Shown here: positions 3,412 through 63,379 of the stretch, one piece after another | Numbering within the stretch: the stretch's first letter is position 1 | Layout of the letters: every line of letters starts with the position of its first letter | NCBI GenBank assembly: GCA_963809895.1 | Contig: CAWELD010000004.1 | Span: 195,356-259,355, forward strand | Direction: 5' to 3' | Source: an uncultured Gemmatimonadales bacterium | GTDB lineage: Bacteria > Gemmatimonadota > Gemmatimonadetes > Longimicrobiales > Gaopeijiaceae | Length of the DNA stretch: 64,000 nucleotides | Position numbers and translations under genes: made by a program | The notes under the pieces: generated by a model | The model's input: only the letters and a program-made list of their open reading frames with translations | Told to the model about the DNA's origin: nothing | Database searches by the model: none

Positions 3412-6042
3412 TCAATCCCAGCGCAGCGTCGTGGCGGGGTTGCCTCGCGTGGCGCCGCGCACCGGAAGCCAACTGGCGATGCATGCCACCAGAGCGAGAA
3501 GGCACGCCACGATGGCGATGATTCCCGGGTCCGTGGGGCTGATCCCCCAGACCAGGCTTGCGAGGAAGCGGGCCACAGCGAGGGCACCCAGCACACCCAC
3601 GGCCAGCCCCAGCAGCACCGGCCGCATGCTCTCCACCACGATGCGCAAGGTGAGCCCGGCGCGGCCGGCTCCCAGCGCCATGCGTATGCCGACTTCCCGG
3701 GTCCGACGCGCCACGCGGTAGGACACCACGCCGTAGATCCCGAATGCCGTCAGCACCAGGGCCACCAGAGCGAACGCCGTCATGAGGAGCGCGTGGAACC
3801 GCTCCGGAGCCATGGCGGCCACCACCACCTCGTCCAGCGAGCCCAACTCGGGCTCGGGGAGTCCCGGAGCCACCTCGGCCACCACGGCCCGGATGCGCTC
3901 CATGGCCGTGCGGGTGTCGCGTGCCCGTACCAGCAGAATGGGCATGCCCGCCAGGTTCTCGGGCACCTGCGCCAGCGGCACCAACACCGTCGCCCTCGCA
4001 CCCCGTTTGAGCGAGGACTCCCGCACGTCACCGATCACCCCGACGATCTCCGCCGGCGCGACCTCGAAGGCCGGCGCCAGGTAGCGACCGCGGAAGCGCC
4101 CGATCTCCACCCGCCGCCCGAGCACCTCTCCGTCCGGGAAGTACTGCTCCGCGAACGCCTGATTGACCAGCACCACCGGTGGCGCGTCGACGCCGTCGTC
4201 ATCGGTGAACTCCCGTCCCTGGACGAGCTCGATGCCCAGCGCGGTGGCGTAGTCCGGCGCCACGGCACGCCACTCCAGGGAATGCCCCTCGTCGTCACGG
4301 CCGGGAACCGCCATGGGGAGGTTGAGGCCGCGCTCCAGAGGAAGTGTCGAGGTCGCCGACACGGACAGGATCGCCGGGTCTGCGCCCAGCCTCTCCGACA
4401 GGCGCCGTTCGAGCTCCGCCATGTCGCGCGCGTCATCGAAGGTCCCCGGCAAGCGGCTCAGCCGCGCCGTCACCACCCCCGCCGACACGAATCCCGGGTC
4501 GACCGATCGCAGCTCACGCAGCGTGCCGATGAGCACGCCCGCGCCCACCAGCAGGACCATGGACAGGCCGGCCTCCATGGCCAGCAGCATGCTGCGCCCC
4601 GCGGCTCGCGAGTTGCCGCCGGCGCGCCGCAGCTCCAACGCGCCGGAACTCCGCGAGCCCGCGATGGCGGCCCCCAGGCTGGCACCGAGGCCCGTCGCCA
4701 GGGTCACGACGCCGCTGAAGAGGAGGACGGTGCCGTTGAGCTCCAGGCGCTGGGTCCGTGGCAGGCGCTCCGGCGAGAGTGCCAGCAGCGCGTCCACCCC
4801 CCAGCGCGCCAGCAGGAATCCCCCGAGACCCGCCAGCGCGGCAAGCAGCACGCCCTCGGACACGACCTGCCTCATGATTCGTCCCCGCGAAGCGCCCAGG
4901 GCGGCACGCACCGCCATCTCCTCACGGCGGTCCGAGGCCCGAGCGAGCATGAGGTTGGCGACGTTGAGGGCCGCGATGAGGAGGACCGCGCTCACCGCCG
5001 CGAAGAGCACCCACAGCGTGCCGGCCAGGTCTCCCACGAAGAGCTCCTGATAGGTCGCGAGGCGCATGCCGCGGTCGCCCTCGGACACCAGATCCGGGTG
5101 CTGGGCGCGGAACGCCCGCGAGACACGCGCCAGGTCTTCCTGCGCCGTCTCTCGCGAGACACCTGGCCGAAGGCGCGCCAGGACCGGGTAGTTCTCGCCG
5201 GCGTCACGGGGATCCGGGTCCAGATGGAGCGGCGTCAGGAAGTCCGTGTAGTCGGCGTTCTCCGGAAAGACGAAGTCCGGGGGCAGCACGCCCACCACGG
5301 TGAACGGGTCCCCGTCCAGCCACGCGGTCCGACCCACGACCCGGGGATCCGCGCCGAAGTGATCCCTCCAGAGCGCGTCGCTCAGCACGATGACCTGCGG
5401 CCCCCCGGGCAGGTCGTCGTCGGGCGAGATGCCGGACCCCAGGGTCGGGACGTAGCCCAGGGTGGAGAGAAACGAGGCGGTTACCCGCATGCCGCGGACC
5501 CGCCCTCCCTGGCCGGCCTCACCCAGGAAGCCGCCGGTGCCCCGATAGGTCGCCACCTGCTCCAGCGTGCGCGCGTTGTCCCTCCAGTACTGGTACTGGA
5601 ATGCCGTCATGTACCCACGAAGGTCGTCGCGGCGCTCCCAGGCGAGATGCGTGAAGCGTTCCCCGGCGGGAAAGGGCAGCGGTCGCAGCACCACGGCGTC
5701 CACCACCGTGAAGATGGCGCTGGTGGCCCCGATCCCCAGCGCGAGGGTGAGGCCCGCGACCAGGGTGAAGCGGGGCGATTTGACCAGGGCGCGCGCGCCG
5801 TATCGCAGATCCTGCCCCATTCCCCGCACGCCCCCGCCCGAGGCCCCCGAGAAGCGTTCGTAGACTCCTCGTCGCAGCAGATCCCAGAGCCCCAGGAATC
5901 CCACCACCAGCCGGGCGCCCGCACCGCCGGCCTCTCGCATGCGGCCGAGGTAGAGCGCCTGCATCGCGTCGCCGTGCTTCCGCCTGAGTGCCCGCGGCAA
6001 CGCGTGGAGACCGACCCGGTACAGCCAACGCCAGATCATCAC
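3412..6042 (-). CDS. ADOP family duplicated permease (MacB/FtsX-like)
   Basis: [47 protein letters not shown], second FtsX repeat [14 protein letters not shown]; overlaps upstream PadR by 4 nt. Confidence 0.93.
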
Positions 6043-6365
6043 GCGGGCATCCCTCCGTGGCCGAGGCGCTCGCGAGCCGTGCGCGCGACGTCCTCCATGC
6101 GCTCGACGTCGGCCTTCAGCGCCTCCCGTCCCAGGGCCGTGATGCGATAGAAGCGCTCTCGCCCGCGACCGTCACCCGGTTGTTCGTCGTCCGCCAGCTC
6201 GCGGATCCAGCCCTTGGCCAGCAGCTCCTCCAGGGAGCCGTAGAGCGTCGCGGGCCACAGACGAACGGCTCCGTCGCTGAAGGCGCGCACGTCTTCCTGG
6301 ATCGAAGAGCCGTAGCGGTCGGCGGACGCAAGCGAGAGAAGGATGTGGAACCAGGGCCGCTTCAT
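6039..6365 (-). CDS. PadR family transcriptional regulator
   Basis: [32 protein letters not shown]-type wing ([12 protein letters not shown]). Confidence 0.92.
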
Positions 6366-6399: not shown

Positions 6400-6436
6400 A
6401 TACGATATCATGACGTATACTATAAAACAATAGTAT
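6400..6436. promoter_or_regulatory. Tandem AT-rich palindromes, putative PadR operator
   Basis: ATACG-N9-CGTAT (6400-6418) overlapping ATACTAT-N6-ATAGTAT (6417-6436), 35-70 bp upstream of the PadR start, in a GC-rich background. Confidence 0.65.
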
Positions 6437-9795: not shown

Positions 9796-9841
9796 TTGCA
9801 CTAAACATCTTAGTGCAATAGCTTGGACTAACCATCTTAGT
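9796..9841. promoter_or_regulatory. Tandem putative PadR operators
   Basis: Perfect TTGCACTAA-ACATC-TTAGTGCAA (9796-9818) plus ACTAA-CCATC-TTAGT (9827-9841) just upstream of PadR. Confidence 0.8.
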
Positions 9842-9868
9842 GTAAGCCTCGTCCGGAGTGCGCACGAC

Positions 9869-10204
9869 ATGCCCGAGTCCCTCGGAGTGGTCCAGGGAAC
9901 GCTGGAGCTCCTGGTCCTGAGAACGCTGGCGGCCGCCGAGCCGCTGCACGGCTTCGCCATCCTGGACTGGATCCGCGAGACCACGGACGAAGCCCTGATC
10001 GTCGAGGACGGCGCGCTCTATCCCGCGCTGCGGCGCATGGAAAAGCGGGGCTGGGTCGCCAGCGACTGGGGCGTGTCGGAAAAGGGACGCCGGGCCCGCT
10101 ACTACACGCTCACACCCTCCGGCCGCATGGCGCTCACCCGGGAGGGCGCCCGCTGGGAGAGCTACGTGCGGGCGGTGGCCAAGTTGTCGCCGGAACGGGC
10201 GTAG
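9869..10204 (+). CDS. PadR family regulator, acidobacterial subtype (TIGR03433-like)
   Basis: QGTLELLVLRTL..PLHGFAI..EDGALYPALRRME..WGVSEKGRRARYYTLT. Confidence 0.93.
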   Translation: MPESLGVVQGTLELLVLRTLAAAEPLHGFAILDWIRETTDEALIVEDGALYPALRRMEKRGWVASDWGVSEKGRRARYYTLTPSGRMALTREGARWESYVRAVAKLSPERA

Positions 10205-10216: not shown

Positions 10217-12967
10217 ATGACCGAGCGACGGGATGGAGGAAAGGGGGAGGGCGGGGCCGACCCGCGACGTGGCCCGGTGCGATGGCTGCACCGGCTGGGG
10301 ATCGCAGGGCCCGGGCCGGAGGAGTCGGCGTCTCTGGAGGTCGAGCACCACATCGCGGAGCTGGCCGACCGCCTGGTGGCGAACGAGGGTCTCGAGCCCG
10401 ACGTGGCCCGCGCCGAGGCGGAGCGTCGCTTCGGCGATTCGGGACGCTATCGGGCTTCCATGCGGCGAATGGACGCGGAGAGGATGAAGATGATGCAACG
10501 CAGCGCACGCTGGGACGTCATTCGCGAAGCGGTGGCCAACACCATCCGGACGGCTCGCCGCTACCCGGGCTTCACGCTGGGGATCGTGCTCACCCTGGCC
10601 CTGGGGATCGGTGCCAACGCCACCATGTACGGCATCGTGGACCGGCTCCTGCTGCAGCCACCCGCGCACGTGGAGAACGCGGACCGGGTGGTGCGGATCT
10701 TCGAGCAGCGGCCGTCGTTCCTGCGACAGGACGAGCTGATCACGTCGTCGGGCCTGACCTTCCCGGACTTCGAGGATCTGAAGGCCCACCGGGGGTTCGA
10801 GCAGGTGGCGGCCCTGGCTTATCCGCAGAAGATGACCGTGGGAAGCGGCCCGGGAGCCGATCGGGTCACGGTGCTGCAGGCCACCCACGCACTGTTCCCG
10901 CTGCTGGGCGTGCAGCCCCGCCTGGGCCGATTCTACGGCCCGGACGACGATCGGGTCGACGCGACGCTCACGGCGGTCATCAGCTCCGAGTACTGGAAGC
11001 GCGCGTACGGTGGGGACCCCAGCGTTCTGGGCAGCACGCTGGAGCTGTCGGGCCGACCCGCGACCATCATCGGCGTCGCGCCCTCCGACTTCACCGGCGT
11101 GGACCTGGCCCCCGTCGACGTCTGGCTGCCGCTGGTCACGTCGGACCACATCACGGGCGGCGACGACTGCCGGGCCAGCCGCGGCTGCTGGTGGATCAAG
11201 GCGGTGGCCCGCCTCCGTCCGAACCAGACGCTGGCCGCGGCCGAGGAAGAGGCCACCCGACTGCATCGCAACGGCCGGCGCGAGATGATCGATCAGGGAC
11301 GCTTTCCCGCCGAGGCGGCCATCGTCCTGGGTCCGCTGATCGCGGCCCAGGGCCCCGAGGCCTCGTCCGGAATCCCGGGTGGCGCGCTGGCTCGCCATCG
11401 TATCGCTCATCGTGCTGCTCGTCGCCTGCGCCAACGTGGCCAACCTCTTCCTCACCCGGTCCATGCGCCAACGAAGAGAGGTGGCCGTGCGCCTGGCCCT
11501 GGGCGTGTCCCGGCGCAGGCTGGTGGGGCAGCGGGTGCTGGAAGCGCTCCTCCTCTCCCTGGTGGGTGGTGTCGTGGCCGTGGTCCTGGCCCGCTGGGGT
11601 GGTGAGGTTCTGCGACGCACGCTCCTGCCGGGCGTGCTCTTTCCCGGTGGGGCCTCAACGTCCGGGCGCTGGGCTTCACCCTGGTCCTGTCGCTGGCGGC
11701 GGGGCTGCTCGCCGGTCTGGGCCCGGCTATCCAGAGCACACGCGCCGACGTCGCCACCGAACTGGGAGAAGGGGGCCGGGGCAGCTCGAGGCGTGGATCG
11801 CGCCTCCGGGCCGGCCTCATCGTCGCCCAGGCCGCCATGTCGGTCGTCCTGCTGGTGGGTGCCGGGCTGTTCGTGAAGAGCCTGGAACACATCCACGGAC
11901 TGGACCTCGGCCTCGACGTGGACCGGCTGCTGGTGGCGGGACTCGAGTTCACGTCCAGCGATCTGGAGCCCGCAGAACGGAATGGAGTGTACCGTGACGC
12001 GATGCGCGAGCTGACGAGGCTGCCGCAGGTGGAATCCGCTACAGCCACCACAGCGCCATTCCAATGGGGGATGGCTACCAGCCTCGACATCCCCGGCGTG
12101 GACTCCATCCCCACCATGCCCGGTGGGGGACCGTACTACTACGGCGTAAGCCCGGACTACTTCGCCACCGTGGGACTGGGAGTCGTACGGGGCAGGGCGC
12201 TCACGCCGTCCGACGGCGAGACCGCAGAGAAGGTCGTGGTCGTGAGTGAGACCATGGCCGACGGCATCTGGCCCGACACCGATCCTCTGGGGGCCTGCAT
12301 GGTGGTGGGCCAGGACGACGACACCTGCCGCGCGGTGGTGGGCGTCGTGCAGGACGCCGCGCGTAGCGGCTATCAGGACAGGCCTTTCATGGCGTACTAC
12401 CTGCCGCTGGCGCAGCTCACCACCGAGCAGGCATCGGGGCTGTACGTTCGGGTCCGCGGCGCTCCCGACGACGCCGTCGGCGAGGTCGCCCGCACGCTCC
12501 GATCGTTCTCGCCATTGGTGCGCTACGCCAGCGTCGAGACGCTCCAGGACCGGCTCGATCCGCAGGCCCGCTCGTGGACGCTGGGCGCTACCATGTTCAG
12601 CCTCTTCGGATTGCTGGCCCTCGTGGTGGCGGCGGTGGGCCTCTACAGCGTGCTTGCCGTCGACGTGGCCCGCCGTACGCGGGAGTTGGGGATTCGCGCC
12701 GCGCTGGGTGCCCGACGCGCGCGCTTGCTCCGGAGCGTGCTGGTCGAAGGAACGCGACTCGCGGTGTTCGGGGTGGCGCTGGGTCTACTCGCCGCCTGGA
12801 TCGCCGCACCCCGAGCCAGCGACCTCCTCTTCGAGGTGGATCCCCACGATGTCGGCACGCTGGCGGCCGTGGCGCTGGCGTTGGTCGCCGTGGCCGTGGC
12901 GGCGAGCCTGATCCCCGGAATGCGGGCCACCCGCGTGGATCCCAGCGAGGCGCTGCGGGCGGAGTAG
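10217..12967 (+). pseudogene. ADOP family duplicated permease, two frameshifts (~11369 +1, ~11650 -1; probably sequencing errors)
   Basis: Three ORF pieces join into one [16 protein letters not shown] / [21 protein letters not shown] / RRTRELGIRAALG..DPSEALRAE. Confidence 0.85.
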
Positions 12968-15425: not shown

Positions 15426-15440
15426 TATGCAATCTGCATA
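15426..15440. promoter_or_regulatory. Putative PadR operator
   Basis: Perfect TATGCA-ATC-TGCATA 15 bp before the PadR ATG. Confidence 0.7.
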
Positions 15441-15455: not shown

Positions 15456-15818
15456 ATGCCCGAACCCGAAAGAGATCCCGAGTCGTTCCTGCCCCTGAAG
15501 GCGGTGGACCACCTCACGCTGCTCCTGCTCGCGCGGGAGCCGTCGTACGGCGTCCAGCTGCTGGAGCGTCTGGAGACCAGCTCCGACGGCGTGATCCGTC
15601 TCAACGCGGGATCCCTCTACCGGACGCTCGCCCAACTCGTGGACCGGGGGCTGGTAGAGCCGCTGGACGAGGTGCCCAATCCGACCGGTGTGGGGGCGCC
15701 CAGGAAGCTGTACGGCGTCACGGAGCGCGGACGGGCGGTGCTGCGGGCCGAGTCCGAGCGGCAGGCCGCATTGCTGGAGATGGCGCGCTCGCTGGACCTG
15801 GCCGAGGGCGGCGCGTGA
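15456..15818 (+). CDS. PadR family transcriptional regulator
   Basis: EPSYGVQL..NAGSLYRTLAQLVDRGLV..RKLYGVTERGR. Confidence 0.92.
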   Translation: MPEPERDPESFLPLKAVDHLTLLLLAREPSYGVQLLERLETSSDGVIRLNAGSLYRTLAQLVDRGLVEPLDEVPNPTGVGAPRKLYGVTERGRAVLRAESERQAALLEMARSLDLAEGGA

Positions 15819-18450
15819 GGGGCCCGCCTCGCCTGCTGCGGGTGCTGCTGCGCCTGTACCCCCGGCGCCACCGGGAGACGTACGGCGCCGAAATGTGGGA
15901 CGTGGTGCGCCACCGCTACCAGACCGGCCACGCGCGCGGTTGGGCGCGTGTGCGCCTCCACGCCGAGGTCGCCGCCGACCTCGTCTGGAACGCCGCGCGT
16001 CTGTGGACGACCGAGTTGGGGAGGATGACGATGGGACGGGGACGAGGAGGCTGGGGGCTCGACGTGCGCTTCGTGCTGCGGGCGCTTCGCAGGCGGCCAG
16101 GCTACACGATCACGGCACTGGCGGTTCTGGCCGGAGCCGTGGCGGTCAACGCCTCGGTGTTCAGCTACGTGCGGGGCACGCTGCTGGCCGAGCCCACGTA
16201 TCCCGGAGCCGACCGCCTCGTCATCGTGTGGGGTAGCAATCCCACCGAAGGTCAGGTCCGGGACGTCATCTCGGGCCCCGACTATCTGGACCTGGCGCGC
16301 GAGAACAGCTCTCTCGAGAGCATCGCGGCATTCCACATCGACGGCGCGGGCGTTCCGGACGCCGACGGGCATCCGCAGGTCTACGACGCCGAGACCGTGT
16401 CGGCCTCCTTCTTCCAGGTGGTTCCCGTGCAGCCGGCTCTGGGCCGCGTGTTCGATGCGCGGGAGCGGAACTCCGGCGGCGAGCGCACGGTGGTGGTGTC
16501 GTGGGCGTTCTGGCGCGACCACCTGGGGCAGGATCCGGCCTGGCTCGGACGGTCGCTGACCATCGAAGGGGAGCCCCACACCGTCATCGGCGTGTTGCCC
16601 GAGGACTTCCAGTTCCTGCTGCCGGTGGCGTTCTGGCTTCCGCTGTACGACGACGTTCTCGCGGCGGACGACCCCTCGCACATCCACTACAACGCCCTGG
16701 GCCGCATGCGCCCCGGGGTGACCGCCCAGGACGTGACCCGCGACCTTGCCGCCGTCCAGCGCAGGACCAACGAGCGGCGCGGCGGCTCTCAGGGTTGGAG
16801 CATCCTGGCCGAGCGGCTCCATGAGACCTCGGTCATGGCCATTCGGAGCATCCTGTGGACCGTGACCGGCGCCGTGGGCCTGGTGCTCCTCATCGCCCTC
16901 GTGAACCTGGCCACCCTCTTCCGCATCCGGACGCTGGGCCGCGACGACGAGCTGGGCGTGCGCCTGGCGTTGGGAGCGAGTCGCGGGCGCGTGGCACGGA
17001 TCCTGGCGCTGGAGTCGGGGGTCCTCGCTCTCTGTGGCGCGGCGTTGGGACTACTGGCCGCCCCTCTGATGCTGGCTCGGGCGCGCGAACTGCTCCCTGT
17101 CTGGGTGCCGATCCCGGACTCCGCCGCCCGCGTGCCCGTCCTTCAGGCGGTGCTGGATCCCGCCGTGGCCGGCACCTCGCTGGGCCTCGCGCTCCTCGGG
17201 GCGTTGGCCCTCACCGCTCCCGGTCTCGTGCGGGCGGTGCGGGCCCGAGGCGCCGCGCGGGGGGGCGAGGCCGGATCGGTTCCCGTGGGACCCGGTGGCT
17301 GGTGGCCGTGGAGCTGGCGCTGGCCACGGTGCTTTGCCTGGGCGCGGTGCTCACCACCCGCAGCGCGTCACGCCTGCTGGCCACGGACGTGGGCCTCCGA
17401 GATCAGGGCCTGTTGACCTTCTGGGTGGGCGACGTGTGGGACCTTCCCCGGGAGGATCAGGTCCAGTACTACCGGGACATCGTCGAGGCCGTCGAGGAGG
17501 TGCCGGGCGTGACCTCCGCCGCCCTCGTCGACTACATCCCCTTCGAAGGCGAGGACGATTTCGCCCGGGTCTACTTCCTGGACCGCTCCTTTCAGCCCGT
17601 GGAGAGCCAGCGGGAGGAGTGGCGCCGGGTGACCGACGGCCTCTTCGAGACCGCCGGCATGTCCATGCTCGCCGGCCGCTCGTTCGCATCGGGGGACTTC
17701 CAGGGCCCGCCCCGCGTGGCCGTCGTGAACCAGGCCTTCGCGCGCAAACACTACCCGCAGGGCTCCGCCGTCGGCCAGCTGATCAGCACGCATGACGAGA
17801 ACTACCGGAACCTGCGCATCGTGGGGGTGGTCTCCGACGTGCGCTCCAGGGGCCCGGCGAACCCTGCCACGCCCATGCTGTACGTGCCCAATCAGGGTAG
17901 CCCCCGCGGCACCGTGGGCATGTACGTCCGGGTCTCGGGTGCCGAGCCCATGGCGCTGGCGCCGGCTGTCCGCGATGCGGTGTGGTCCGTGGATCCCACC
18001 CAGCTCGTGGCGGACATGCTCCCCATGTCGACGCTGGTGGCGGCATGGGTCGCGATTCCCCGCGCCGTGCGCACGTTGCTCTCCTGGGTGGCGGCCCTGG
18101 CGCTGGGGCTCGCGGCCGTGGGCGTGTTCGGCGTGGTGGCCTACGCGGTGCGTGGCCGAAGGCAGGAGATCGGCGTGCGGCTGGCCCTGGGCGCATCGCC
18201 CGGGCGCCTCCGCAGAGAGGTGTTGGCCGGGGCGCTTCCCATGGTGGTCCTGGGGGTGGGAGGAGGTGTGGTCGCCGGCCTGCTCGCAGCACGCGCGGCG
18301 GGGGCGCTCCTCTACGGCGTTGCGCCGGCCGATCCGGTGTCGCTGGGGATCGCGCTGCTGGCCATGGCCACCGTCGCTCTGCTGGCGATCTGGATCCCGG
18401 CTCGGCGTGCCTCACGCATCGATCCCACGGAGGCCATCCGGGCCGATTGA
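15815..18450 (+). pseudogene. ADOP family duplicated permease, one frameshift in G7 run 17259-17265
   Basis: N-half (LYPRRHRETYGAEM..ELGVRLALGA) and C-half (WLVAVELALA..RRQEIGVRLALGA..DPTEAIRAD) are restored to one frame by adding one G. Confidence 0.85.
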
Positions 18451-19352: not shown

Positions 19353-19691
19353 GTGACCGAGAGCACCTCGCCCAACCTGATGCGGGGCACGGTGGACCTG
19401 GTGGTGCTACGGACCCTGCAGGAGGGGCCCATGCACGGATTCGCCATCGCCCGATGGATCCGCGACGGGAGCGACGACGTGGTCCAGTTCGAGGATGCCG
19501 CGCTGTACCAGTCGCTCCACCGCCTGGAGCGCAAGGCCCTGGTGGAGTCGTCGTGGGGCCGCTCGGAGAACAATCGCCGGGCTCGCTTCTACCGCCTCAC
19601 GGACCGTGGCCGCCGCCACCTGGAGCGCCAGGCGGAAGAGTTCAGGAGCTACGCCGAGGCCGTCACACGCCTGCTGGAAGGCGAGGCATAG
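19353..19691 (+). CDS. PadR family regulator, acidobacterial subtype
   Basis: GTG after GGAGGA; RGTVDLVVLRTL..PMHGFAI..EDAALYQSLHRLE..WGRSENNRRARFYRLT. Confidence 0.93.
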   Translation: MTESTSPNLMRGTVDLVVLRTLQEGPMHGFAIARWIRDGSDDVVQFEDAALYQSLHRLERKALVESSWGRSENNRRARFYRLTDRGRRHLERQAEEFRSYAEAVTRLLEGEA

Positions 19692-46872: not shown

Positions 46873-46908
46873 TTTCGCCGCATGCCACCGACCCGAGCTC
46901 GCCCGACC

Positions 46909-47271: not shown

Positions 47272-47272
47272 C

Positions 47273-49949
47273 ATGGCCCGCCGACACGAGCTCGCCGACC
47301 GGATCTACCGCGCGCTGATCCGGCTGTATCCACCGCCGTTCCGGCGCGAGTACGGCCCGGACCTGGTCCAGGCCTTCAGGGATCATGCACGCGAGGCGCG
47401 CTACCACGGCGGCGGGGGCCGACTGCGCCTGGCGGCGTGGATGGTCGCGGACCTCGGGACCTCGGTCCCACGGCAATGGCTGTCGTGGGCGCTCGGTCGC
47501 ACCAGACGACAGGGAGGTGGGGGGATGGGGATCACGATTCTGGATCTGCGCGGCGCGCTACGCTCGCTGGCACGCAGGCCCGCGTACACGCTCACCGCGG
47601 TGGGGACCCTGGCCGTGGGAATCGCCGGCGCGACCACGATCTTCAGCATCGCCGACGGCATCGTGCTCCGGCCGCTGCCGTATCCGGATGCGGACCGGCT
47701 GGTCCAGGTGGGCACGACCTTTTCGGACTGGGACGGCCTGGGATCCGTGGCCCCGGCCGAGTTCGCGGCCTGGCGCAGGGGCGTCGCCGCCTTCGAGTCC
47801 GTTGCCGCGTCCAGGATCCAGCTCCTCACCGTGCACACCGGTGACACGCCCGACGAGCTCACCGGGGCCGGCGTGTCCGGCGACTTCTTCCAGCTCATGG
47901 GTGCCCGTGCCGCGCGCGGCAGGCTCCTGGGCACGGCCGACGACGATCCCGACGCGCCGGCGACGGCGGTCCTCACCCACGGCGCGTGGCTGCGGCGTTT
48001 GGGTGCGGACGACGGGGTGCTCGGAAGCACGGTCTCCATGGACGGCACCCCCTTCACCATCGTGGGAGTCCTTCCGGCGAGCTATCGGCCCCCAGAAGCG
48101 CTCTACCAGCAGGACGTCGAGGTCTACATCCCGCTGACCCGGGTGGCCGACGACGTCTCGCCCGAGGTCTTCGACTCCTCGTTCCTGCAGGTCGTGGCCC
48201 GGCTCCGCGGAGGCATCCGTGCCGGGGTCGCCGCGGAACAGCTCCACGCCGCCGAGGACGAGCTCCTGCGCGAACGGGGCGTGCCGCCAGATGCCCGCTC
48301 CGTGGGGCTGCGGCCGTTGCAGGATCGGACCGTGGGCGAATTCGGCCACACGCTGCTGCCGTTCCTGGCCGCGGTGGGTCTGCTCCTGCTCGTGGCGTGC
48401 GCCAACGTCGCCAACCTCTCGCTGATCCGGGCCACCGAGCGGGGCCGGGAGATGGCGGTGCGAGCGGCGCTGGGCGCCGGCCGCGCCCGCGTGGTACGAC
48501 AACTCCTCACCGAGAGCCTGGTCACCGCCCTGGCCGCCGGGGCCCTGGGCGCCGCGCTGGCCTGGGGCTCCGTGGCGCTCTTCCACCGCTTCGCGCCGCC
48601 ATCGGTTCCACGAGCCGCGGAGGTGGCGGTGGATGGCCGCGTCCTCGCCTTCGGGCTCGCCGTGGCGCTCGTCACCGGCCTGCTCTTCGGCCTGGCGCCG
48701 GTGCTGCACGTCGTGCGCGCCCGCATCGGCGACGGCCTTCGGGACCGCAGCGGGCTGCAGCCTCCGGGCATGCGCCTGCGGAGCGTGCTGGTGGTGGGCG
48801 AGATCGCCTTCGCCATGGTCCTGGTCGTGGGGGGGACGCTCCTGGTGGGCTCGCTCCTCCGCCTCATGGGCACCGACCTGGGCTTCCGCCCGTCGGGTGC
48901 CGCGTACATGACGGTGATGCCCGAAGGGCCGCGATGGGACGATCCGGAGCAGCGTCTCTCCCTCTACCGCGATCTCGCGACGCGGGTGGCGGCCCTGCCC
49001 GGGGTCACCGCCGTCGGCGGCGTGAGCAACCTGCCCCTGGGCGGGCGACAGCCGCATCAACATCACCGTGGAGGGCTACACGCCGCCCTCCGATGCCGAC
49101 GCCAGCGTCAGCTATCACCGCATTCTGCCGGGATTCTTCCAGGCGGCGGGAATCCGCGTACTGGAGGGTCGAAGCCCGAGCTGGAACGAGCCCGACGCCG
49201 CGGGATCGGTCTCCGTGGTCGTGAACCGGGCCATGGCTCGCCGCTACTGGCCGGGCCAGAGCGCGCTGGGACGCCATCTGCACCTCGGCAGTTCGGGCGG
49301 GAACGCCACCTGGATGACGGTGCGCGGCGTGGTGGGCGACGTGCGCCAGGTGTCTCCGGGGATTCCGCCCGAGCCTCAGCTGTACCTGCCGTACACACGC
49401 ACGCCCTCGGGATTCCAGGTGCTGGTGGCGAGAACGGGTGGCGACCCCGCCACGCTCGTGGCTCCCATGCGCCGGATCCTCGCCGAGCTCGCACCGGACC
49501 TGCCCGCCCGCCGCAGCGGGACGCTGGCGTCGCACGTCGCGCAGAGCCTGGTCACGCCCCGCTTCTACGCGCTCATCCTGGCGACGCTGGCCGGCATGGC
49601 CCTGGTCCTGGCCCTGGTGGGGGTCTACGGCACCATGGCCTACGCCGTACGGACCCGCACCCGCGAGCTCGGCGTGCGCATGGCGTTGGGCGCGGGCCGC
49701 GGACGTGTGCGGGCGATGGTCCTGGGCCGGGGAATGCGCATGGCGGTGGCGGGTGTGGTCCTGGGCCTGCTGTTGGCCCTGGGCTGGACCCGCCTCCTGG
49801 CGAGCCTGGTCTACGGCGTCTCACCCGACGACCCCGTGACCCTGGCGGCGGCGGGCGTCGCGGTGACCGTGGCCGCCGTTCTGGCCTCGTGGATTCCCGC
49901 GATGCGGGCGACACGGGTGGATCCGGCCCGGGCTCTCAGGGCGGACTGA
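47273..49949 (+). pseudogene. ADOP family duplicated permease, one +1 frameshift at ~49044
   Basis: Prefix [31 protein letters not shown]; removing one G gives [16 protein letters not shown] continuing to [21 protein letters not shown]. Confidence 0.85.
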
Positions 49950-50762: not shown

Positions 50763-53099
50763 ATGACCCTCCTTCGACGTGTCTTCGTGCGCTCGCCGCG
50801 CTATGCCCTCGGCGTGATCGTGACCCTGGCCCTGGCCCTGGCCGGCGTGGACGTCCTGCTGGCCGTGGCCCGGCCGGTGCTGCTGAGCCCCCTCCCGTTC
50901 CCCGATGCCGACCAGCTGTACGAGGTGCGCGTACAGAGCCCCGACGAGGTCGACGCGGGTCCGGTGTCCCATCCGGGCTTCCTGAGACTGCGAGAGGCCG
51001 CGGGCTCGGCCGCGACCCTCGGTGCGTATCGCGCCACCGACCTGACGCTCACCGGCTCCGCTGCGGCGGAGGCCGTGCCGGGTGCGGTGGTGACCTGGGG
51101 CCTGGCCGAGACCCTGGGCACCCGGTTCGTCTCGGGACGTGCCTTCACGCAGGATGAGGACGCGCCCGGGGGGCCACCCGTGGCGATCGTCAGCCATGCG
51201 CTCTGGCAGCGTCGGTTCGGCGGAGATCCCGGGGCCATCGGACGCACGCTCGAGATCGCCGGATCCACGCATGCCATCGTCGGGATCCTGGCTCCGGAGA
51301 TGACCTATCCGTCCGGTGCGGAGATCTGGGTTCCGCTCCAGAACGACGACCTGCGTCGCGGCGATGCGTTTCGCTTTCTCTCGGTCCTGGCCCGCACCGC
51401 GAGCGGCGTGGACCGGAGCGCGCTGGGCGAGGCGCTGGGTCGAATCCCCGCCAGCGACGGCTCCGTGCGTGTCCAACCGCTGGTGGAGGCGCTGCTGGGC
51501 ACCATGCGGGGACGCGTTCTGGCGCTGGGCGCGGCGGTCCTGGCCACGCTGCTCACCGCGAGCTTGAGCCTGGGCGTGCTCGCGCTGGTACGCTCGATCA
51601 CCCGCCGAGGGGACCATGTCGTGCGACTGGCACTGGGAGCGCCGCGGGGTCGCCTGGCACGCGAGGTCGTCATGGAGCTGGCCGTGTTGGGACTCGCGGC
51701 CTCGGGCGTGGCGTGGCTGATCGCCACGGGAATTCTTCGCTTCGCAGCCTCTCTGGCACCTCCGGAGTTGTTGGCCCTGGGAACGCCGCGCACGTCGTGG
51801 CCGATCCTCGCCCTCGGGGCTCTTGTCGGTGTCGGAACGGCGCTGCTCGCGTCGCTCCTGCCGTGGGCGACCCTGCCATCGTCCGAGCTGGCCGCCCACA
51901 TCCGGGCCACCGGGACCGCACGGCGCGGCGGGCGGGCGTTCTCGGTTCTGATGGCCGCGCAGACGGCCGTTTCATTGGCGCTGAGTGCAGGCGCCATGGC
52001 CTGGGCATCGTCGCTGGTCCGCGCGAGCCGGGTGGAGTTGGGATTCGAAGCGCGCGGACTCACCGAGTTTCACCTGGGCCTCGGTGGGCCCGGGTATCGG
52101 ACCGGAGGCGCCAGGGTGCGCCTGGTGGACGATCTCCGGGCACGGCTCCGCGAGTTCCCCGGCGTGACCTCGGTGGGCGTGGCCCTCGGCACGCCGCTGT
52201 CGGGCAGCCGCATGCGTACCCGCGCCACCGTCGACGGAGACACGCGCGCTGCCGGTGACGTCATGCTCCAGCCCGCGTCGCCCGATCTCGTGACGACGCT
52301 GGGGCGGACCGTGGTGGAGGGCCGGGACTTCTCCGCCGACGACGACGGCGACGGCCGGCCGGTGGCCATGGTCAGCGAGGCCGCGGCCGCGGTGTTGTGG
52401 CCCGGCGAGTCACCCCTCGGCCGGACGCTGACGCTGGAGACCGAGCCCGGCGGATCGGAGGGCGCCCGGACCGTGGTCGGAGTCGTGTCCGACGTCAGCG
52501 GCGACCTGACCGGAGCGGCGCAGGCCGAAGTGCTGGTGCCGTATGCTCAGGCTGCCATCCCCAGTGTCGCCGTGGTCGTGCGCGGAGCGAGGTCGGGCTC
52601 GCTGAGCCTGAGCGATGCGCGTCGGGTCGTCGCCGCCCTCGACCCTTCGCTGCCCGTGACCGGGTTTCGGGCCGTGGCCGAGCACAGGGCCTCGATCCTC
52701 CGTCCGCTCCGACTCCAGACGGCGATCCTGGTGGGCTTCGCAGCGCTGGCCGTGCTGCTGGTGCTCGTGAGCGTGTACGCCGTGACCGCCTCGCTGGTCG
52801 CGGATCGGCGGCGCGAGCTCGGCGTGCGCATCGCCCTCGGGTCCAGCCCGGGAGCGGTGCGCCTGGAGGTGTTGCGGTGGGGCCTGGGGCCCGTGCTCGT
52901 GGGCCTCGCGGCGGGCGGGGCGCTGGCGGTCTGGGCCACGGGCCTCATGGCGGCGGGGGCGGCGGCACCGGCGATGCACCTGTCCTGGCCCATGATCGTC
53001 CTTCCGGCGCTGGGCCTGGTGCTCCTGAGCGCGTTCTCCCTCCTCCACCCCCTGCGCACCGTTCGCGGAATCTCGGCGATCCGGGTCCTGGCGTCGTAG
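50763..53099 (+). CDS. ADOP family duplicated permease (no N-terminal prefix)
   Basis: VTLALALAG..LLSPLPFPDAD; VRLALGA; RRRELGVRIALG. Confidence 0.88.
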   Translation: MTLLRRVFVRSPRYALGVIVTLALALAGVDVLLAVARPVLLSPLPFPDADQLYEVRVQSPDEVDAGPVSHPGFLRLREAAGSAATLGAYRATDLTLTGSAAAEAVPGAVVTWGLAETLGTRFVSGRAFTQDEDAPGGPPVAIVSHALWQRRFGGDPGAIGRTLEIAGSTHAIVGILAPEMTYPSGAEIWVPLQNDDLRRGDAFRFLSVLARTASGVDRSALGEALGRIPASDGSVRVQPLVEALLGTMRGRVLALGAAVLATLLTASLSLGVLALVRSITRRGDHVVRLALGAPRGRLAREVVMELAVLGLAASGVAWLIATGILRFAASLAPPELLALGTPRTSWPILALGALVGVGTALLASLLPWATLPSSELAAHIRATGTARRGGRAFSVLMAAQTAVSLALSAGAMAWASSLVRASRVELGFEARGLTEFHLGLGGPGYRTGGARVRLVDDLRARLREFPGVTSVGVALGTPLSGSRMRTRATVDGDTRAAGDVMLQPASPDLVTTLGRTVVEGRDFSADDDGDGRPVAMVSEAAAAVLWPGESPLGRTLTLETEPGGSEGARTVVGVVSDVSGDLTGAAQAEVLVPYAQAAIPSVAVVVRGARSGSLSLSDARRVVAALDPSLPVTGFRAVAEHRASILRPLRLQTAILVGFAALAVLLVLVSVYAVTASLVADRRRELGVRIALGSSPGAVRLEVLRWGLGPVLVGLAAGGALAVWATGLMAAGAAAPAMHLSWPMIVLPALGLVLLSAFSLLHPLRTVRGISAIRVLAS

Positions 53100-56428: not shown

Positions 56429-58783
56429 ATGAACATCCTCCGCGTGCTCCGCCAAGCCCTGCGCTCGCTGGCTCGTCACGCAGGCACCACGCTGGTGGCG
56501 ATCCTGTCCATCGGGGTCGGCATGGGCGCGAACCTCGCGCTCCTGGGGTGGGCATGGTCCATGACCTACCAGGAGCGCGACACGCCCGGTGGTGGTCGTT
56601 TGCTCTGGGTATCCGTGATCGAGCCCGGCGATGCGGGAACGAGCGTGCTCCCGCCACCGGACGAGGCCCTCGCCCTCCTCAACGGAGGGGCGTCGTGGGA
56701 CGCGGTGGGCGCCTGGGACGGCTCGCTGGCCAGCGTCTCGGCGGCGGGCGCCACAGGTCGAGAATGGGTCCGTTGGACCACCCCGGGCTTCTTGCGGGGG
56801 ATGGGCCTCCACGCCGCTGCCGGCCGCTTCTTCGTGGCCGGCGATACGCTGCCTGCCGGCGAGCCGGTGGCCCTGGTGTCCCGGAACCGTGCGGTCGCCC
56901 GCTGGGGATCTCCTGAAGCCGCCCTGGGTGAGACGCTTCGCGTCGACGGGGTGCCGCACCGGATCGTGGGAGTCATCGGAGCCGACTGGGACGCCGGCGA
57001 GTTCGCCGTGCACCTCCCCCTGGCCGCGTCGCGGGACCGCGGCCGCCACCGCGCCCGCATGTGGGTGCATCTGCCCGAGAGTGGCCCCGACGCCAGGGCC
57101 CGGGCGAACGACGAAATCCGCGCTCGGCTCAGCACGCTGAGGACGGGAGACGGGCGCGTCGTCGGCATACGCACCGGTGGTGAGAAGGAGGTGCTCAGGA
57201 GTGGCTCCCCGATCCAGCTGCGACCCTTCTTGCTCCCGCTCGCGGTCCTCCTGCTGGCGTGCGTCAACGTAGCCACCGTGCTCCTGGCTCGCGGCGCCGC
57301 GCGGGCGCCTGCCCTGGCCACGCAGAGGATGCTCGGGGCCGGGGCGTGGCACGTGCTTCGCCCACTGCTGGCGGAGAGCGCGCTGCTGGCCACCGCATCG
57401 GCAGCGCTCGCCCTGCTCTTCGCCGAGGTGGCCTTTCGCACGATCCTGTCCCTGCCGGGTCCCGACGCCCCCCGCCTGGGGATTCCCGTGCTCCTGGCCG
57501 CGGGCGCACTCGTCCTGCTCGTCGTACTTGCCGCGGGAGCGTGGCCCGCCGCCGCAGCGCTGCGGGTGCGCGCCGGAGACCTCCTCCGCACGGCCCACAC
57601 CACCGGTACCGGAGGCCGGCCTCTGGGGCTCCGCTCGGTGCTCTTCGCCGTGGAGGCCGCGCTGGCCACGGCGCTGGTCCTCTTCGCCTGCGAGTCGGCG
57701 GGCTTCGCGCTGGCCGAGGCGCGGCGGGGCGTCGGATTCGAGCCCTCCGCCATGGCGGAGACCGATCTCGACGTGGACCAGGTGGCCGGAGGATTCCCGA
57801 CACTGGCTGCATGGGTCGACGGAATGGTGAATCGCGTCGATGTGGTGGCGGCGGGAGGCATGACGGTGCGACCGCTGACGGCTCCCGACGCCCTGGACGT
57901 GGACGGCGCACCGATCACGGTCCCGGAGCGGGCGGCGCCCCGGGCTCCGCGGCTCGCATGGATCACCCGCGATCTGAGGCGCGCACTCGGGCTGCCCCTC
58001 CTGAGGGGGCGTGACCCCACGACAGCCGAGTTCCAGGCGGGCGACCCCGTGGTGCTCATCAACGACGCGGCGGCACGGCTCCTGTTCATGGACCGGCCCA
58101 GCGCGCTGGGCGCCCGCATCGGCGTGCTCCCGCCCGGGAGCGGCGGGCGGATCACGCTCACCGTGGTGGGCATCGTCGCAGACATGCGCGACCAGCCGCT
58201 CTTCCAGGACGACGCGCCACCGGCCCTGTACACTCCCTGGCATGAGGCTGCGGGTGGCATGGCGCGCATCTACGTCCGCGGTGCGACGGCCGCCGCCGCG
58301 GAGAACGCGCTCCGTGGAGCCTTGGAGCGGAACCTCGCCGGCACCACACCGCCCCCGGTCCGATCCACGGCCGACGCGGTACGGGAGCAGACCGCCGCGC
58401 CGCGTCTCCAGGCCTGGCTCACCGGTGCGGCGGGCACCTTCGCGCTCCTGCTGGCCGCGCTGGGGTTGTTCGGCATCACCGCTCTGGTCGTGGCGGGGGA
58501 ACGTCGAGGGCTGGGGGTGCGTGCCGCCCTGGGCGCCGGGCCCCTGGCGTTGGTGGCTGTCGCGCTGCGGCGGATCGTGATCCCCGTCGCCGTGGGCGTA
58601 CTGGCCGGAGCGGGATTCCGGGCACTGCTGGCCGGGTACGCGGTCCGCGGCGCCGGTGGCATGCCGGTGCATCCCTGGCTGGTCGCGGCGGCCGTGGTCG
58701 CTGCGGCGCTGTCGGCTGCCGCCGCACCCCCACTCTGGCGCGCCGCGCACCTGGATCCGGCCCGCACCCTGCGCGAAGAATGA
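56429..58783 (+). CDS. Divergent ADOP-like duplicated permease (no N-terminal prefix)
   Basis: SIGVGMGANLAL, LACVNVATVLLAR, RRGLGVRAALGA, DPARTLREE. Confidence 0.85.
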   Translation: MNILRVLRQALRSLARHAGTTLVAILSIGVGMGANLALLGWAWSMTYQERDTPGGGRLLWVSVIEPGDAGTSVLPPPDEALALLNGGASWDAVGAWDGSLASVSAAGATGREWVRWTTPGFLRGMGLHAAAGRFFVAGDTLPAGEPVALVSRNRAVARWGSPEAALGETLRVDGVPHRIVGVIGADWDAGEFAVHLPLAASRDRGRHRARMWVHLPESGPDARARANDEIRARLSTLRTGDGRVVGIRTGGEKEVLRSGSPIQLRPFLLPLAVLLLACVNVATVLLARGAARAPALATQRMLGAGAWHVLRPLLAESALLATASAALALLFAEVAFRTILSLPGPDAPRLGIPVLLAAGALVLLVVLAAGAWPAAAALRVRAGDLLRTAHTTGTGGRPLGLRSVLFAVEAALATALVLFACESAGFALAEARRGVGFEPSAMAETDLDVDQVAGGFPTLAAWVDGMVNRVDVVAAGGMTVRPLTAPDALDVDGAPITVPERAAPRAPRLAWITRDLRRALGLPLLRGRDPTTAEFQAGDPVVLINDAAARLLFMDRPSALGARIGVLPPGSGGRITLTVVGIVADMRDQPLFQDDAPPALYTPWHEAAGGMARIYVRGATAAAAENALRGALERNLAGTTPPPVRSTADAVREQTAAPRLQAWLTGAAGTFALLLAALGLFGITALVVAGERRGLGVRAALGAGPLALVAVALRRIVIPVAVGVLAGAGFRALLAGYAVRGAGGMPVHPWLVAAAVVAAALSAAAAPPLWRAAHLDPARTLREE

Positions 58784-60979: not shown

Positions 60980-60997
60980 GGAAGTCGGAGAGCAGAT

Positions 60998-63379
60998 ATG
61001 CCGATGCTTTTCGACGACGTACGCTTCGCGTGGCGCGCCCTGGCGCGAAACCGCGGCTTGACCGCGGCGGCCACCCTCGTCGCGGGATTGGGGCTCGGCA
61101 TCTTCACGGCGTTCTTCGGTGTCGTGAACGGCGTGCTGTATCGGCCACTCCCGTATCGGGACGCCGATGAGCTGATCCGCATCGGACAAGTGGGCGAGCG
61201 GAGTCGCGGCCCCGGCGACGCGGTGTCACCGGGCGCCGTCCAGCTCCTTCGGGAGGCATCGACGACCCTGGTGGGAGTGGCTGCCTTCCGGCGCGAGACG
61301 GCGTCCCTGCTCACGGGCACGGAGCCCGTCCGGGTGCAGGTGGCTCGGACCACTCCGGATCTCTTCGCGGTGCTGGGCGTGGGCGCCGCACTCGGTCGCA
61401 CGCTGACGACAGGCGACGACGACGCGGTCCTTCTCGCCCATGACCTGTGGGTGGGGGGCTTCGGCGCCGACTCCACCGTACTCGGCCAGAGCGTGCGCAT
61501 CGACGGTGAGCGGCACGTCGTCGTGGGGATCATGCCCGCCGACTTCGGGCTCGACCGTGGCGTCTCGCTGTACCTTCCTCTGGATCTGACCCGCGAGGCA
61601 TCGAGCGGTGGCTCCGGCACGCCGTGGTACTCGGTGATCGCACGCAGGATGCCGCGTGCGAGCATGGCGACGGTGCGCGCCGAGCTGGCCACGCTATCCG
61701 ACCGGTTGCCGGCGACGAACGACGAGCCGGCCCATCTCCAGGCGTATGCCGAGGTGGTCCCCCGTGACACCTTCTTCCGGGGACTGGAGTGGGTCCTTCT
61801 CGGCGCCGCTGGACTCCTCCTGCTCGTGACCTGCTCCAACGTCGCGGGGCTGCTGCTGGCACGCGGCGCGCGCAGGCGCCCGGAGATCGCGGTGCGCGCG
61901 GCTCTGGGGGGAAGCCGGCGGCGGATCTTCCGCCAGAGCCTTCTGGAGAGTGCGCTCCTGGCGGGAACGGCCGGTGTCGTGGCGCTGACGGCGGCCTCCT
62001 GGCTGGCCGATGTCTTCGTGAGCCTGCTTCCGGCCGGCCTTCCGTGGTGGAGCCAGGTCGATGTGCTGGATCTACGGGTTCTGGCGGTGGCGGGTCTCGG
62101 CGCCCTGGTCATCATGGCGACCGTCGGCGCCGGTCCCTCGCTGGAGGCGTCACGCGTGGATCTCCTGCGTGTGCTGGGCCTGGGAGGATCGGGCGCGACG
62201 GACGGAGTGCGGCAACGGCGGCTGCGAGACGGCGTCGTGACGCTCCAGATGACCCTGTCGTTCGTGCTGCTGGTGGCCTCGGTCCTGGTGTGGCGGAGCA
62301 CCGGGGCCCTGAATCGTCTCGATCTGGGCTGGAACGCCGAGGGCGTGCTGCGGGCTTCCGTCGCCGGCCCCGCGCTGAACGAGGAGAGCACGCGCTGGAA
62401 CGTGATGGACCGCATCAGCGAACGCGCCCGATCCCTGCCCACGGCGACCGGCGCGGCGTGGAGCGGCTTCCCGGCCGAGGTCGAGGGCGTGACTCTGAGC
62501 CGCGAAGACCGGCTCACCGCGATCGGAAGTGGCGTCTCGCTGAGCGCCCTCGGTGTACAGCGGCTGGCGGTGGACCCCACCTATTTCCGGACCTCGGGCC
62601 TCGAGCTACGCTCCGGCCGCGGCTTCGATCCGGGTGGCGCCGCGGGCGTCGTGCTGGGCGAGACGCTCGCCCACACCCTGTGGCCCGACGGCTCGGCCGT
62701 CGGCGAGACCCTCCGTCTCGGCACCCTGTCGTTCGAGGTCCTGGGTGTCGTGTCCGACCCGCTCGAGATGCTCGGCGGGCGCGACGGTCTTCGCGCCGTG
62801 CGTCGCCCACACCTCTACCTGCCCATGCACCTGGCGAGCCCGACGTCGCTGGATCTTCGCGTCGCCGCCGCAGACCCCGCGGCGCTGTCCGGAGCCCTGC
62901 GCGAGCTGGCGGCCGAGGTGGACCCCACCGTCACGCTCTCCGGTGTGGAGACCGGGTGGGAGCGGGCGCTGGGCAACCAGCTGGTCGTGAACCGCTTCCT
63001 GTCGTCGCTGCTGGGCGCGCTGGCCGCCATGGGCATTCTCCTGTCGTCCATCGGCCTCTACGGACTGATCGCCTACTCCATCACCTTACGGACCCGCGAG
63101 ATCGGCATCCGCTCGGCGCTGGGCGCCGAGCCTGCCCGCATCGTGCGCACGGTACTCCGGGGAGCCGTGACGCTTCTGGTCGCGGCCCTCGCCTGTGGCG
63201 GCCTGCTCGCGGCACTCGGTTCCCTGGCGGTCGGTGGATTCCTGTACGGAATCCGCCTGTTCGATCCCGCGACATGGCTGGGCGCTGCCTCGCTGCTGGG
63301 TGCCGTGACGATCGTCGCGGCCGCACATCCCGTGCGTCGCGCGCTGGCGGTGGACCCGGCAGACGCTCTGCGAAGCTGA
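60998..63379 (+). CDS. ADOP family duplicated permease (no N-terminal prefix)
   Basis: Starts at DDVRFAWRAL; TCSNVAGLLLAR..EIAVRAALG; RTREIGIRSALG. Confidence 0.9.
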   Translation: MPMLFDDVRFAWRALARNRGLTAAATLVAGLGLGIFTAFFGVVNGVLYRPLPYRDADELIRIGQVGERSRGPGDAVSPGAVQLLREASTTLVGVAAFRRETASLLTGTEPVRVQVARTTPDLFAVLGVGAALGRTLTTGDDDAVLLAHDLWVGGFGADSTVLGQSVRIDGERHVVVGIMPADFGLDRGVSLYLPLDLTREASSGGSGTPWYSVIARRMPRASMATVRAELATLSDRLPATNDEPAHLQAYAEVVPRDTFFRGLEWVLLGAAGLLLLVTCSNVAGLLLARGARRRPEIAVRAALGGSRRRIFRQSLLESALLAGTAGVVALTAASWLADVFVSLLPAGLPWWSQVDVLDLRVLAVAGLGALVIMATVGAGPSLEASRVDLLRVLGLGGSGATDGVRQRRLRDGVVTLQMTLSFVLLVASVLVWRSTGALNRLDLGWNAEGVLRASVAGPALNEESTRWNVMDRISERARSLPTATGAAWSGFPAEVEGVTLSREDRLTAIGSGVSLSALGVQRLAVDPTYFRTSGLELRSGRGFDPGGAAGVVLGETLAHTLWPDGSAVGETLRLGTLSFEVLGVVSDPLEMLGGRDGLRAVRRPHLYLPMHLASPTSLDLRVAAADPAALSGALRELAAEVDPTVTLSGVETGWERALGNQLVVNRFLSSLLGALAAMGILLSSIGLYGLIAYSITLRTREIGIRSALGAEPARIVRTVLRGAVTLLVAALACGGLLAALGSLAVGGFLYGIRLFDPATWLGAASLLGAVTIVAAAHPVRRALAVDPADALRS

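Follow-up and report, generated by a model that had tools for sequence, protein, structure and literature searches.

The 64,000-nt stretch of DNA from an uncultured Gemmatimonadales bacterium analyzed here (the window; 70% G+C) raises the question of why a small PadR-family regulator gene should recur directly 5' of duplicated MacB/FtsX permease genes of the ADOP type, and what the extra N-terminal segment borne by these permeases, referred to below as the head, is for. Genes are named by their start coordinate (PadR 46909, ADOP 47273, etc.). The window contains six PadR genes, each with such a permease directly behind it, and three complete ADOPs without a PadR. As the initial annotation had claimed, all six PadR-coupled permeases are headed and none of the three PadR-less ones is: the former carry 77, 104, 82, 83, 100, and 90 residues ahead of the D-x-R anchor of the permease body, slightly more than the 70 to 95 originally given, and the latter start at the anchor or at most six codons from it. 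Its observations that head type follows PadR type, with the head motifs as described, and that no frame for an ABC ATPase is found within the window were also borne out.

We lean, with little more than even confidence, toward a reading in which PadR and head form a class-matched, swappable cassette, the head would act as a membrane-tethered anti-repressor lying over the recognition helix of the PadR, and a selected internal start would also yield headless permease.

Two MacB_PCD plus FtsX repeats are present in all complete ADOPs of the window. The three intact headed genes score 638 to 772 bits against TIGR03434 (ADOP; cut-off 622 bits), with the headless (327-581 bits) and the frameshifted genes below the cut-off. 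The label of acidobacterial PadR (TIGR03433; cut-off 101.8 bits) given at first holds for the two class-A PadRs, 9869 and 19353, but not for the four class-B PadRs, which reach only 43 to 60 bits and match the PadR family PF03551.

Pairing of permease heads with PadR classes

The genome contains 124 ADOP N-termini and 104 PadR-like frames; four of 128 anchor matches (two single-repeat MacB-like, two truncated) were left out before counting. The PadR tree resolves four clades (A, 24; B, 39; C, 28; D, 6) and a small A-like group. All 88 ADOPs behind a PadR are headed (86 in frame, two frameshifted), while 27 of the 36 without an upstream PadR are headless and nine are headed (88/0 vs 9/27, Fisher p = 7e-20, computed on paralogs that are not independent). 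The claim that the head occurs only on PadR-coupled permeases is therefore too strict, although five of the nine have a PadR of the same class directly downstream and two stand second in tandem behind a same-class pair. For the remaining two no same-class PadR lies within 4.5 kb. In total, 95 of the 97 headed ADOPs belong to a locus with a PadR of the matching class. The two others are type-C headed ADOPs of this genome (G000; C4:74850 and C3:826701), which have perhaps lost their PadRs or else work on PadRs in trans.

In five-fold cross-validation, profiles of the heads, trained separately for each PadR clade, placed 83 of 86 held-out heads correctly, with no cross-class assignment and three heads unassigned; these three were labelled by eye, C4_88475 being weak. 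The genome-wide tally suggested by the initial annotation thus gives four clades that match four head types without a single cross-class pair. Class is also kept in all five operons in which the order is swapped and the PadR lies downstream (C, C, B, B, A; ~0.003 by class frequency). As the partners are 2.4 kb apart in these operons, the objection that adjacent DNA merely travels together is weakened. In other genomes, which are kin of the present one and were scored with head profiles trained on it, 169 of 171 pairs at loci found via their PadRs match, none mismatches, and two are frameshifted. Anchors more than 330 aa into the frame, duplicates, and loci of the present genome are left out of these counts, and PadR loci without an ADOP in reach are listed separately (12 in one set, five in another).

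The PadR stop and the head start overlap in 57 of 83 pairs. The permease bodies are ~32% identical to one another, and on a tree of the 108 intact bodies (16 broken ones omitted) head class changes 50 times, compared with 61 +/- 2.7 after shuffling, so that PadR and head travel as one cassette from body to body. These counts show the pairing, the four-class code, the stop/start overlap, and the reshuffling of heads across permease lineages.

Class D is the smallest; its PadR has an SGTVYP motif, its head a W..EW.AEL motif, and all five of the in-frame genes have the internal start described below. Class-D-like loci of the present genome are C10:94522, C10:99769, C3:836095, and three more (e.g., C3:3557861 and C10:534800). 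Near-identical PadR-ADOP pairs on separate contigs (C1:219-3255 and C3:1860059-1863095) reflect either recent duplication or strain mixing in the assembly. At C3:3309688-3310571, a class-C PadR is followed by a type-C head whose frame ends ~89 residues on, with no ADOP body.

Predicted complex between head and PadR

A complex was modelled for one type-B pair, PadR 46909 and its own head, with two copies of each, 55-row alignments, and three controls. The predicted complex scores 0.68, compared with 0.02 for the best control; the mark of the prediction tool is reached by 116 of 157 solved and two of 215 mismatched pairs, counts that are only a rough guide for this set-up. Between runs, at least 98% of contacts are the same, and the partner pLDDT (predicted local distance difference test) is at least 83. 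In the model, helices 2 and 3 of the head lie over PadR residues 31-35, 47-62, and 80-83, that is, the recognition helix and the wing. This interface contains Tyr32, Tyr54, and the wing arginines, which by motif comparison correspond to Tyr20, Tyr42, and Lys67 of Bacillus subtilis PadR, described as its DNA-binding hot spot in the accessible text of the structural report (PMC5728393). If the model is right, head and operator would hence compete for PadR. The motif at the start of the recognition helix differs by PadR class ([28 protein letters not shown]).

Inter-protein covariation, a check proposed with the initial annotation, is consistent with the model: among 108 type-B pairs, eight of the top 25 couplings fall in the modelled interface, against 1.0 in shuffles (p = 0.005), and in 53 pairs outside the model input the mean interface Z is 0.145, against 0.007 +/- 0.034. 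The covariation lends modest support to the predicted interface. Taken together, the class match surviving order swaps, the complex model, and the covariation support a head that would dock the PadR of its own class.

Predicted internal start at the head-body junction

A candidate internal start was defined as an in-frame ATG with a Shine-Dalgarno (SD) duplex of -6 kcal/mol or better within 18 codons before the body, the anti-SD sequence being a consensus. By this definition, 56 of the 94 in-frame headed genes have an internal start (class A, 13/25; B, 25/37; C, 13/27; D, 5/5; window, 4/6), compared with 1 to 7 of 94 in each of 11 control windows. Out-of-frame ATG plus SD combinations in the same zone occur in only 3/94 and 4/94. 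The internal ATG peaks at codon -6, which is where headless ADOPs start, and the spacing between SD and ATG peaks at 7 nt.

Several features of the junction point to selection on nucleotides. The junction duplex is -10.2 as observed and -7.3 +/- 0.27 in synonymous shuffles. Within the SD zone the common codon GGC is avoided (3 of 84 Gly) and the rare codon AGG is favored (23 of 45 Arg), and GAGG falls in all three frames. The mRNA folding at the junction (-8.4) is as weak as at true starts (-9.75), core ATGs giving -15.1. Strong SD sites occur only where an ATG follows, and linkers without ATG have no strong site. The internal SD, with a median of -11.5, is stronger than that at the starts of headless genes (-6.3). 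We regard this as a clear nucleotide-level signal of a predicted internal start. Since the fusion of head and body is kept in frame in 94 of 97 cases, both long and short forms are expected, and the internal start would likely give a long headed and a short headless isoform.

The signal is strong in the present lineage and patchy elsewhere. In same-order relatives an internal start is found in 35 of 48 loci, mostly of type B, and in 10 of 23 type-C loci; farther out in the same phylum the count is 12/38 (controls, 0%-5%). In two Acidobacteria genomes (L035-L063 and L153), type-A linkers often have Met at codon -12 (7/19) rather than at -6, with a synonymous-test p of 0.02. The internal start, as well as classes C and D, had been missed in the first typing of the locus, of which the A- and B-type pairs stand.

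Identity and spread of the head families

Type-A heads are perm_prefix_1 (NF038403, cut-off 30 bits), head 19724 scoring 49.7 bits and head 10217 just under the cut-off. Type-C heads are perm_prefix_2 (NF038404, cut-off 35): in a scan covering 15 of the 27 in-frame type-C heads, 12 match at E up to 1, the best with 58.5 bits. Type B, with the motif P..FR..YG, accounts for 39 of the 97 heads in the genome and four of six in the window, yet none of 55 type-B heads matches any NCBIfam model and no consistent Pfam match was found. It is related to type C (hhalign 81%-87%), whereas types B, C, and D have no profile similarity to type A (0.2%-3.6%). Against Pfam HAAS (PF22564, cut-off 27 bits), two of 31 type-A heads give weak matches, the best being head 19724 with 19.3 bits. 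Three helices are predicted for the type-B head, but its alignment has no conserved GxP, the kink that characterizes the third helix of HAAS. Heads of types B, C, and D have a basic character, with net charges of +7 to +9, and the first helix of type B is amphipathic.

Fold searches with the heads, including one for likeness to 2O3L (DUF1048), returned generic helical matches only, and sequence searches turned up no relative of known structure for either head. A homolog search started from one type-B head sequence recovered nothing but that head, and a search for related loci gave four loci. With the type-B profile, 13,792 clusters were matched at E up to 0.001. In 62 of the best 150 clusters the head is followed by an ADOP body; sugar transferase, Clp_N, beta-propeller, or GNVR domains were seen in others of the 93 that were scanned, the data covering the proteins themselves. 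In relatives, type-B heads are found on TMEM260-like proteins behind a class-B PadR, and heads also occur on small transmembrane proteins behind same-class PadRs. Two loci have a type-B head on a TMEM260-like O-mannosyltransferase behind a class-B PadR (L173:632-1831, minus strand; L177:1449-2648, plus strand), and at C3:1851664-1853466 and C1:14378-15223 A-like PadRs precede a type-A head on a multi-pass non-ADOP membrane protein.

Permease body and the ATPase question

An "orphan" permease is one with no adjacent ATPase gene, as is the case for the ADOPs of the window. Genome-wide, an ABC ATPase of any kind lies within 3 kb of only four of the 124 ADOPs, one of them in a clear operon. In a phylum sample, 7 of the 30 best ADOP loci have such an ATPase alongside. 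At least one copy of a motif that we take to be the ATPase-coupling helix is found in 83 of 85 headed bodies, and the periplasmic domains are the most diverged part of the body (27% vs 37%-38%).

The clear operon (C3:756574-764642, L273) encodes an outer-membrane factor, an HlyD-type adaptor, an ABC ATPase, a headless ADOP, and a second ATPase, and by eye continues with an apparent response regulator and kinase. It holds the only ADOP of the 124 in a full efflux-type operon and is a candidate source of shared partners.

The retained motif, the headless ADOP in an ATPase operon, and the ATPase neighbors in the phylum together make an ATPase shared in trans plausible, so that the lack of a local ATPase does not make the headed ADOPs pure sensors. 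The argument "no ATPase, therefore sensor" of the initial annotation was accordingly rejected in view of this operon and the coupling motif kept by headed ADOPs.

Candidate operators

A TAT/ATA dyad is found upstream of 20 of 37 class-B operons and 3 of 55 others, and ACA.TGT upstream of 10 of 26 class-C operons and 0 of 66 others, both motifs having been picked on the data in which they are counted. No class-A consensus was found among the upstream regions, and the class motifs are absent upstream of four of the five order-swapped operons.

Proposed mechanism and alternatives

We propose that the PadR would most likely repress its own operon at the upstream candidate palindrome at rest, in the manner of Listeria PadRs with HAAS partners (PMC6624303). 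A conformational change of the permease, triggered by envelope stress or a substrate in the periplasm and probably powered in trans by the shared ATPase, would expose the head; the exposed head would then capture PadR and mask its recognition helix, and the operon would be derepressed. The headless isoform would add permease without anti-repressor and thus damp the positive feedback, while the stop/start overlap would tie head supply to PadR supply. Within this scheme the ligand, the switch direction, and the isoform ratio are inferred. A wider version, which we put forward only tentatively and consider less probable than not, holds that helical heads of several families, including an uncurated one with more than 13,000 clusters, would be membrane-tethered anti-repressors covering the recognition helix of their own PadR class, and that each gene in the lineage would be a dual-start switch, ~100 cassettes wiring ~100 type VII ABC bodies as feedback-damped envelope sensors.

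A number of results weigh against the favored reading. For the class match, adjacent genes co-inherit, and linkage could account for most of it. In a within-class mirror test the partial r is -0.01 for type B and ~0.2 for A and C, no higher than for PadR versus body; mirror evolution at the paralog level was dropped on this ground, and cognate specificity for the individual paralog appears weak or absent, leaving of the proposed docking its class level. The complex model covers one type-B pair with custom alignments, in a 2:2 set-up unlike that of the calibration and with the cognate PadR as the only PadR. The held-out top-25 covariation count (2 vs 0.7, p = 0.15) is not significant, and the head interface columns are no more conserved than the rest (p = 0.58), for which reason interface conservation was discarded as support. 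As for the internal start, it is missing in 38 of the 94 genes (four with a GTG/TTG alternative), among them two of the six in the window; among the 29 top-scoring type-A loci in same-order relatives it is seen in only 3 (missing in 26), and among 26 loci of the two Acidobacteria genomes in 6 (missing in 20; controls, 0%-5%); and the synonymous test is not significant (p = 0.12) in the more distant same-phylum set. The periplasmic ligand and the switch direction in the present organism are pure inference.

The same binding could also operate in the opposite direction, with the resting head keeping PadR in store at the membrane until a signal releases it, much like an anti-sigma factor. The near 1:1 synthesis suggested by the overlap in 57 of 83 pairs would suit such storage, "release or reconfiguration" is allowed for in the accessible text of Ravi et al. 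(PMC11237479), and release is stated in that of the Lipocone preprint (10.1101/2025.01.14.632903). We nevertheless think this unlikely, as LstR and LltR of Listeria repress 100- to 150-fold in normal growth according to the text available (PMC6624303), which places PadR on DNA at rest there. For the internal start, the main alternative is that SD and ATG at the junction are an unused relic of PadR-head cassettes having been fused before complete headless genes. Heads scattered over the body tree, the ATG peak at the codon where headless genes begin, and the patchiness across lineages all fit a relic. But relic sites would hardly be stronger than the starts of headless genes, and unselected synonymous sites should have decayed between bodies of ~32% identity; codon bias, weak folding, and the dependence of the SD on an ATG speak in the same direction, and we rate a relic as improbable, about on a par with storage at the membrane.

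It is more doubtful still that ADOPs are plain type VII ABC permeases with a shared ATPase, the PadR sensing a small molecule, the head being a membrane-surface or folding element, and the class match reflecting linkage. The efflux-type operon and the coupling motif in 83 of 85 headed bodies agree with such a role, as do the basic B, C, and D heads and the amphipathic first helix of type B. The PDB relatives of the class-B PadR are small PadR-family proteins, presumably including the ligand-binding LmrR. This alternative is, however, hard to reconcile with class being kept in all five order-swapped operons, with heads that travel with PadR onto unrelated proteins, and with the complex model and covariation. 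Least probable in our view is that a protease cuts off the head and that the junction SD is a ribosome pause site helping PadR to load on the nascent head. The Gly-rich flexible linker would suit a protease, and internal SD-like sites can pause ribosomes; against this reading, strong SD sites are confined to places with an in-frame ATG ~7 nt downstream, and out-of-frame ATG plus SD pairs are at background.

Features of the window

Three of the six headed ADOPs (10217, 15815, and 47273) are frameshifted in the present assembly. The extra base at 49042-49046 is absent from one contig in each of two other studies (depth ~3), so this break is either an assembly error or strain-specific; an assembly error is likely because 16 of 124 ADOP bodies are broken genome-wide. 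No sigma-70-type promoter was found at 46600-47700. Short contigs from one RNA run extend over PadR 46909 and its ADOP, but these may stem from library DNA and starts are not visible in them, and they were not used.

Table 1. PadR and ADOP genes of the window with their candidate regulatory elements
Feature	Coordinates	Strand	Basis and remarks
PadR 6365, class B	6039..6365	-	PF03551 42.6 bits; below TIGR03433 cut-off; clade B in PadR tree
Candidate operator upstream of PadR 6365, imperfect inverted repeat of ATA-N13-TAT type	6417..6436	-	Putative
Intact ADOP, type-B head (5812-6042)	3412..6042	-	TIGR03434 772 bits; start overlaps PadR stop (GTGA)
Predicted internal in-frame ATG (5820-5818) with SD-like site, 3 codons before core	5818..5835	-	Duplex -9.3 kcal/mol
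Candidate operator palindrome upstream of PadR 9869, two copies of CTAA-N5-TTAG	9799..9842	+	Putative
PadR 9869, class A	9869..10204	+	TIGR03433 121.6 bits
ADOP, type-A head (10217-10528)	10217..12967	+	perm_prefix_1 26.1 bits, under cut-off 30; two frameshifts between ~11270 and 11800
Internal ATGs of ADOP 10217	10484-10495	+	SD -5.4 to -8.6
Candidate operator palindrome upstream of PadR 15456	15426..15440	+	Putative
PadR 15456, class B	15456..15818	+	Family profiles and PadR tree
ADOP, type-B head (15815-16060)	15815..18450	+	Start overlaps PadR stop; one frameshift near 17250-17300
Predicted internal SD and in-frame ATG (16031) of ADOP 15815, 10 codons before core	16019..16033	+	Duplex -11.4 kcal/mol
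PadR 19353, class A	19353..19691	+	TIGR03433 121.5 bits; candidate operator 19292-19313
Intact ADOP, type-A head (19724-19972)	19724..22336	+	TIGR03434 650 bits; perm_prefix_1 49.7 bits; linker without internal ATG
PadR 38969, class B	38969..39307	+	Family profiles and clade; candidate operator 38907-38923
Intact ADOP, type-B head (39304-39603)	39304..41982	+	TIGR03434 638 bits; start overlaps PadR stop; linker without internal ATG
Candidate operator inverted repeat upstream of PadR 46909	46843..46864	+	Putative
PadR 46909, class B, chain in complex model	46909..47271	+	Family profiles, model
Type-B head, three helices (2-16, 21-45, 47-73), predicted PadR-binding domain	47273..47500	+	Predicted structure
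Predicted internal SD (GGAGGT, 47513-47518) and in-frame ATG (47525), 6 codons before core	47513..47527	+	Duplex -16.1 kcal/mol
ADOP, type-B head	47273..49949	+	One-base frameshift at 49042-49046
Headless ADOP, no PadR	50763..53099	+	TIGR03434 494 bits, under cut-off
Headless ADOP, no PadR	56429..58783	+	TIGR03434 327 bits, under cut-off
Headless ADOP, no PadR, ATG 6 codons before anchor	60998..63379	+	TIGR03434 581 bits, under cut-off

The C-terminal part of a tenth ADOP lies at 63392-64000 on the minus strand, cut by the contig end. Neighboring genes at 3-3341 (minus strand), 28172-30640, 33089-34717, 36855-37724, and 53547-55826 (all plus strand) encode two TonB-dependent receptors, a PhoD-like phosphatase, a LytTR response regulator, and a molybdopterin-binding oxidoreductase subunit.

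Comparison with known systems

The feature is real and belongs to a known kind of system, to which the present analysis adds two testable points, recognition-helix masking and the junction start. In Acidobacteria and related bacteria of soils and sediments, ADOPs form one of the largest gene expansions still lacking an explanation, with 124 copies in the present genome. In our literature search, whose coverage did not extend to subscription papers, no paper was found on ADOP function, on binding of the head to the recognition helix of PadR, or on an internal start in these genes. Compared with the curated families, the body is the same as in TIGR03434, whose model starts at the body and omits the head; the class-A PadR is the same as TIGR03433, which only class A passes; and types A and C belong to perm_prefix_1 and perm_prefix_2, with type B matching neither, though related to type C.

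The closest relative is the HAAS-PadR dyad, already proposed as a prediction by Ravi et al. in 2024, whose accessible text lists this very architecture as HAAS (PMC11237479): a small, stand-alone PadR gene before a helical N-terminal domain on a duplicated MacB/FtsX permease or other membrane proteins, with proposed membrane-to-DNA signalling as the shared function. The sequestration suggested in the initial annotation has been published for HAAS heads in that work. The dyad is put forward there as an alternative to two-component systems, with no binding mode given and a model that invokes the GxP groove and an unspecified conformational relay, and a 2025 preprint, in the portion available, words it as release of bound PadR (10.1101/2025.01.14.632903). 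As far as the published account is accessible, the class code, the predicted occlusion of the recognition helix, and the internal start are only in the present analysis, although the supplement or web app of Ravi et al. (PMC11237479) could include heads of type B or C under HAAS. The analysis names residues and a competitive mechanism and extends the system to head families outside HAAS. In Listeria, LstR-Lmo0421 and LltR-Lmo0600 are described by Hauf et al. (2019), in the text available, as PadRs that repress their own operon, which encodes a HAAS/DUF1700 membrane partner; these are single copies with no inducer found there (PMC6624303), compared with ~100 paralogs in the present genome.

If true, the internal start would provide a rare example in which programmed isoforms determine how much anti-repressor a membrane protein supplies. 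It would also account for the starting point of the curated ADOP model and of many gene calls, which lies behind the head. Pairs of N-terminal proteoforms arising from internal starts in a single gene are known for CheA (L/S), SpaO (L/S), and CcmM (58/35), where, according to the accessible part of a recent account (PMC13515050), one gene likewise gives a long form and a short form without its N-terminal interaction domain. Unlike in these cases, the signal predicted here from sequence is shared by many members of a paralog family, and the domain lost would be the repressor-binding head of a membrane protein.

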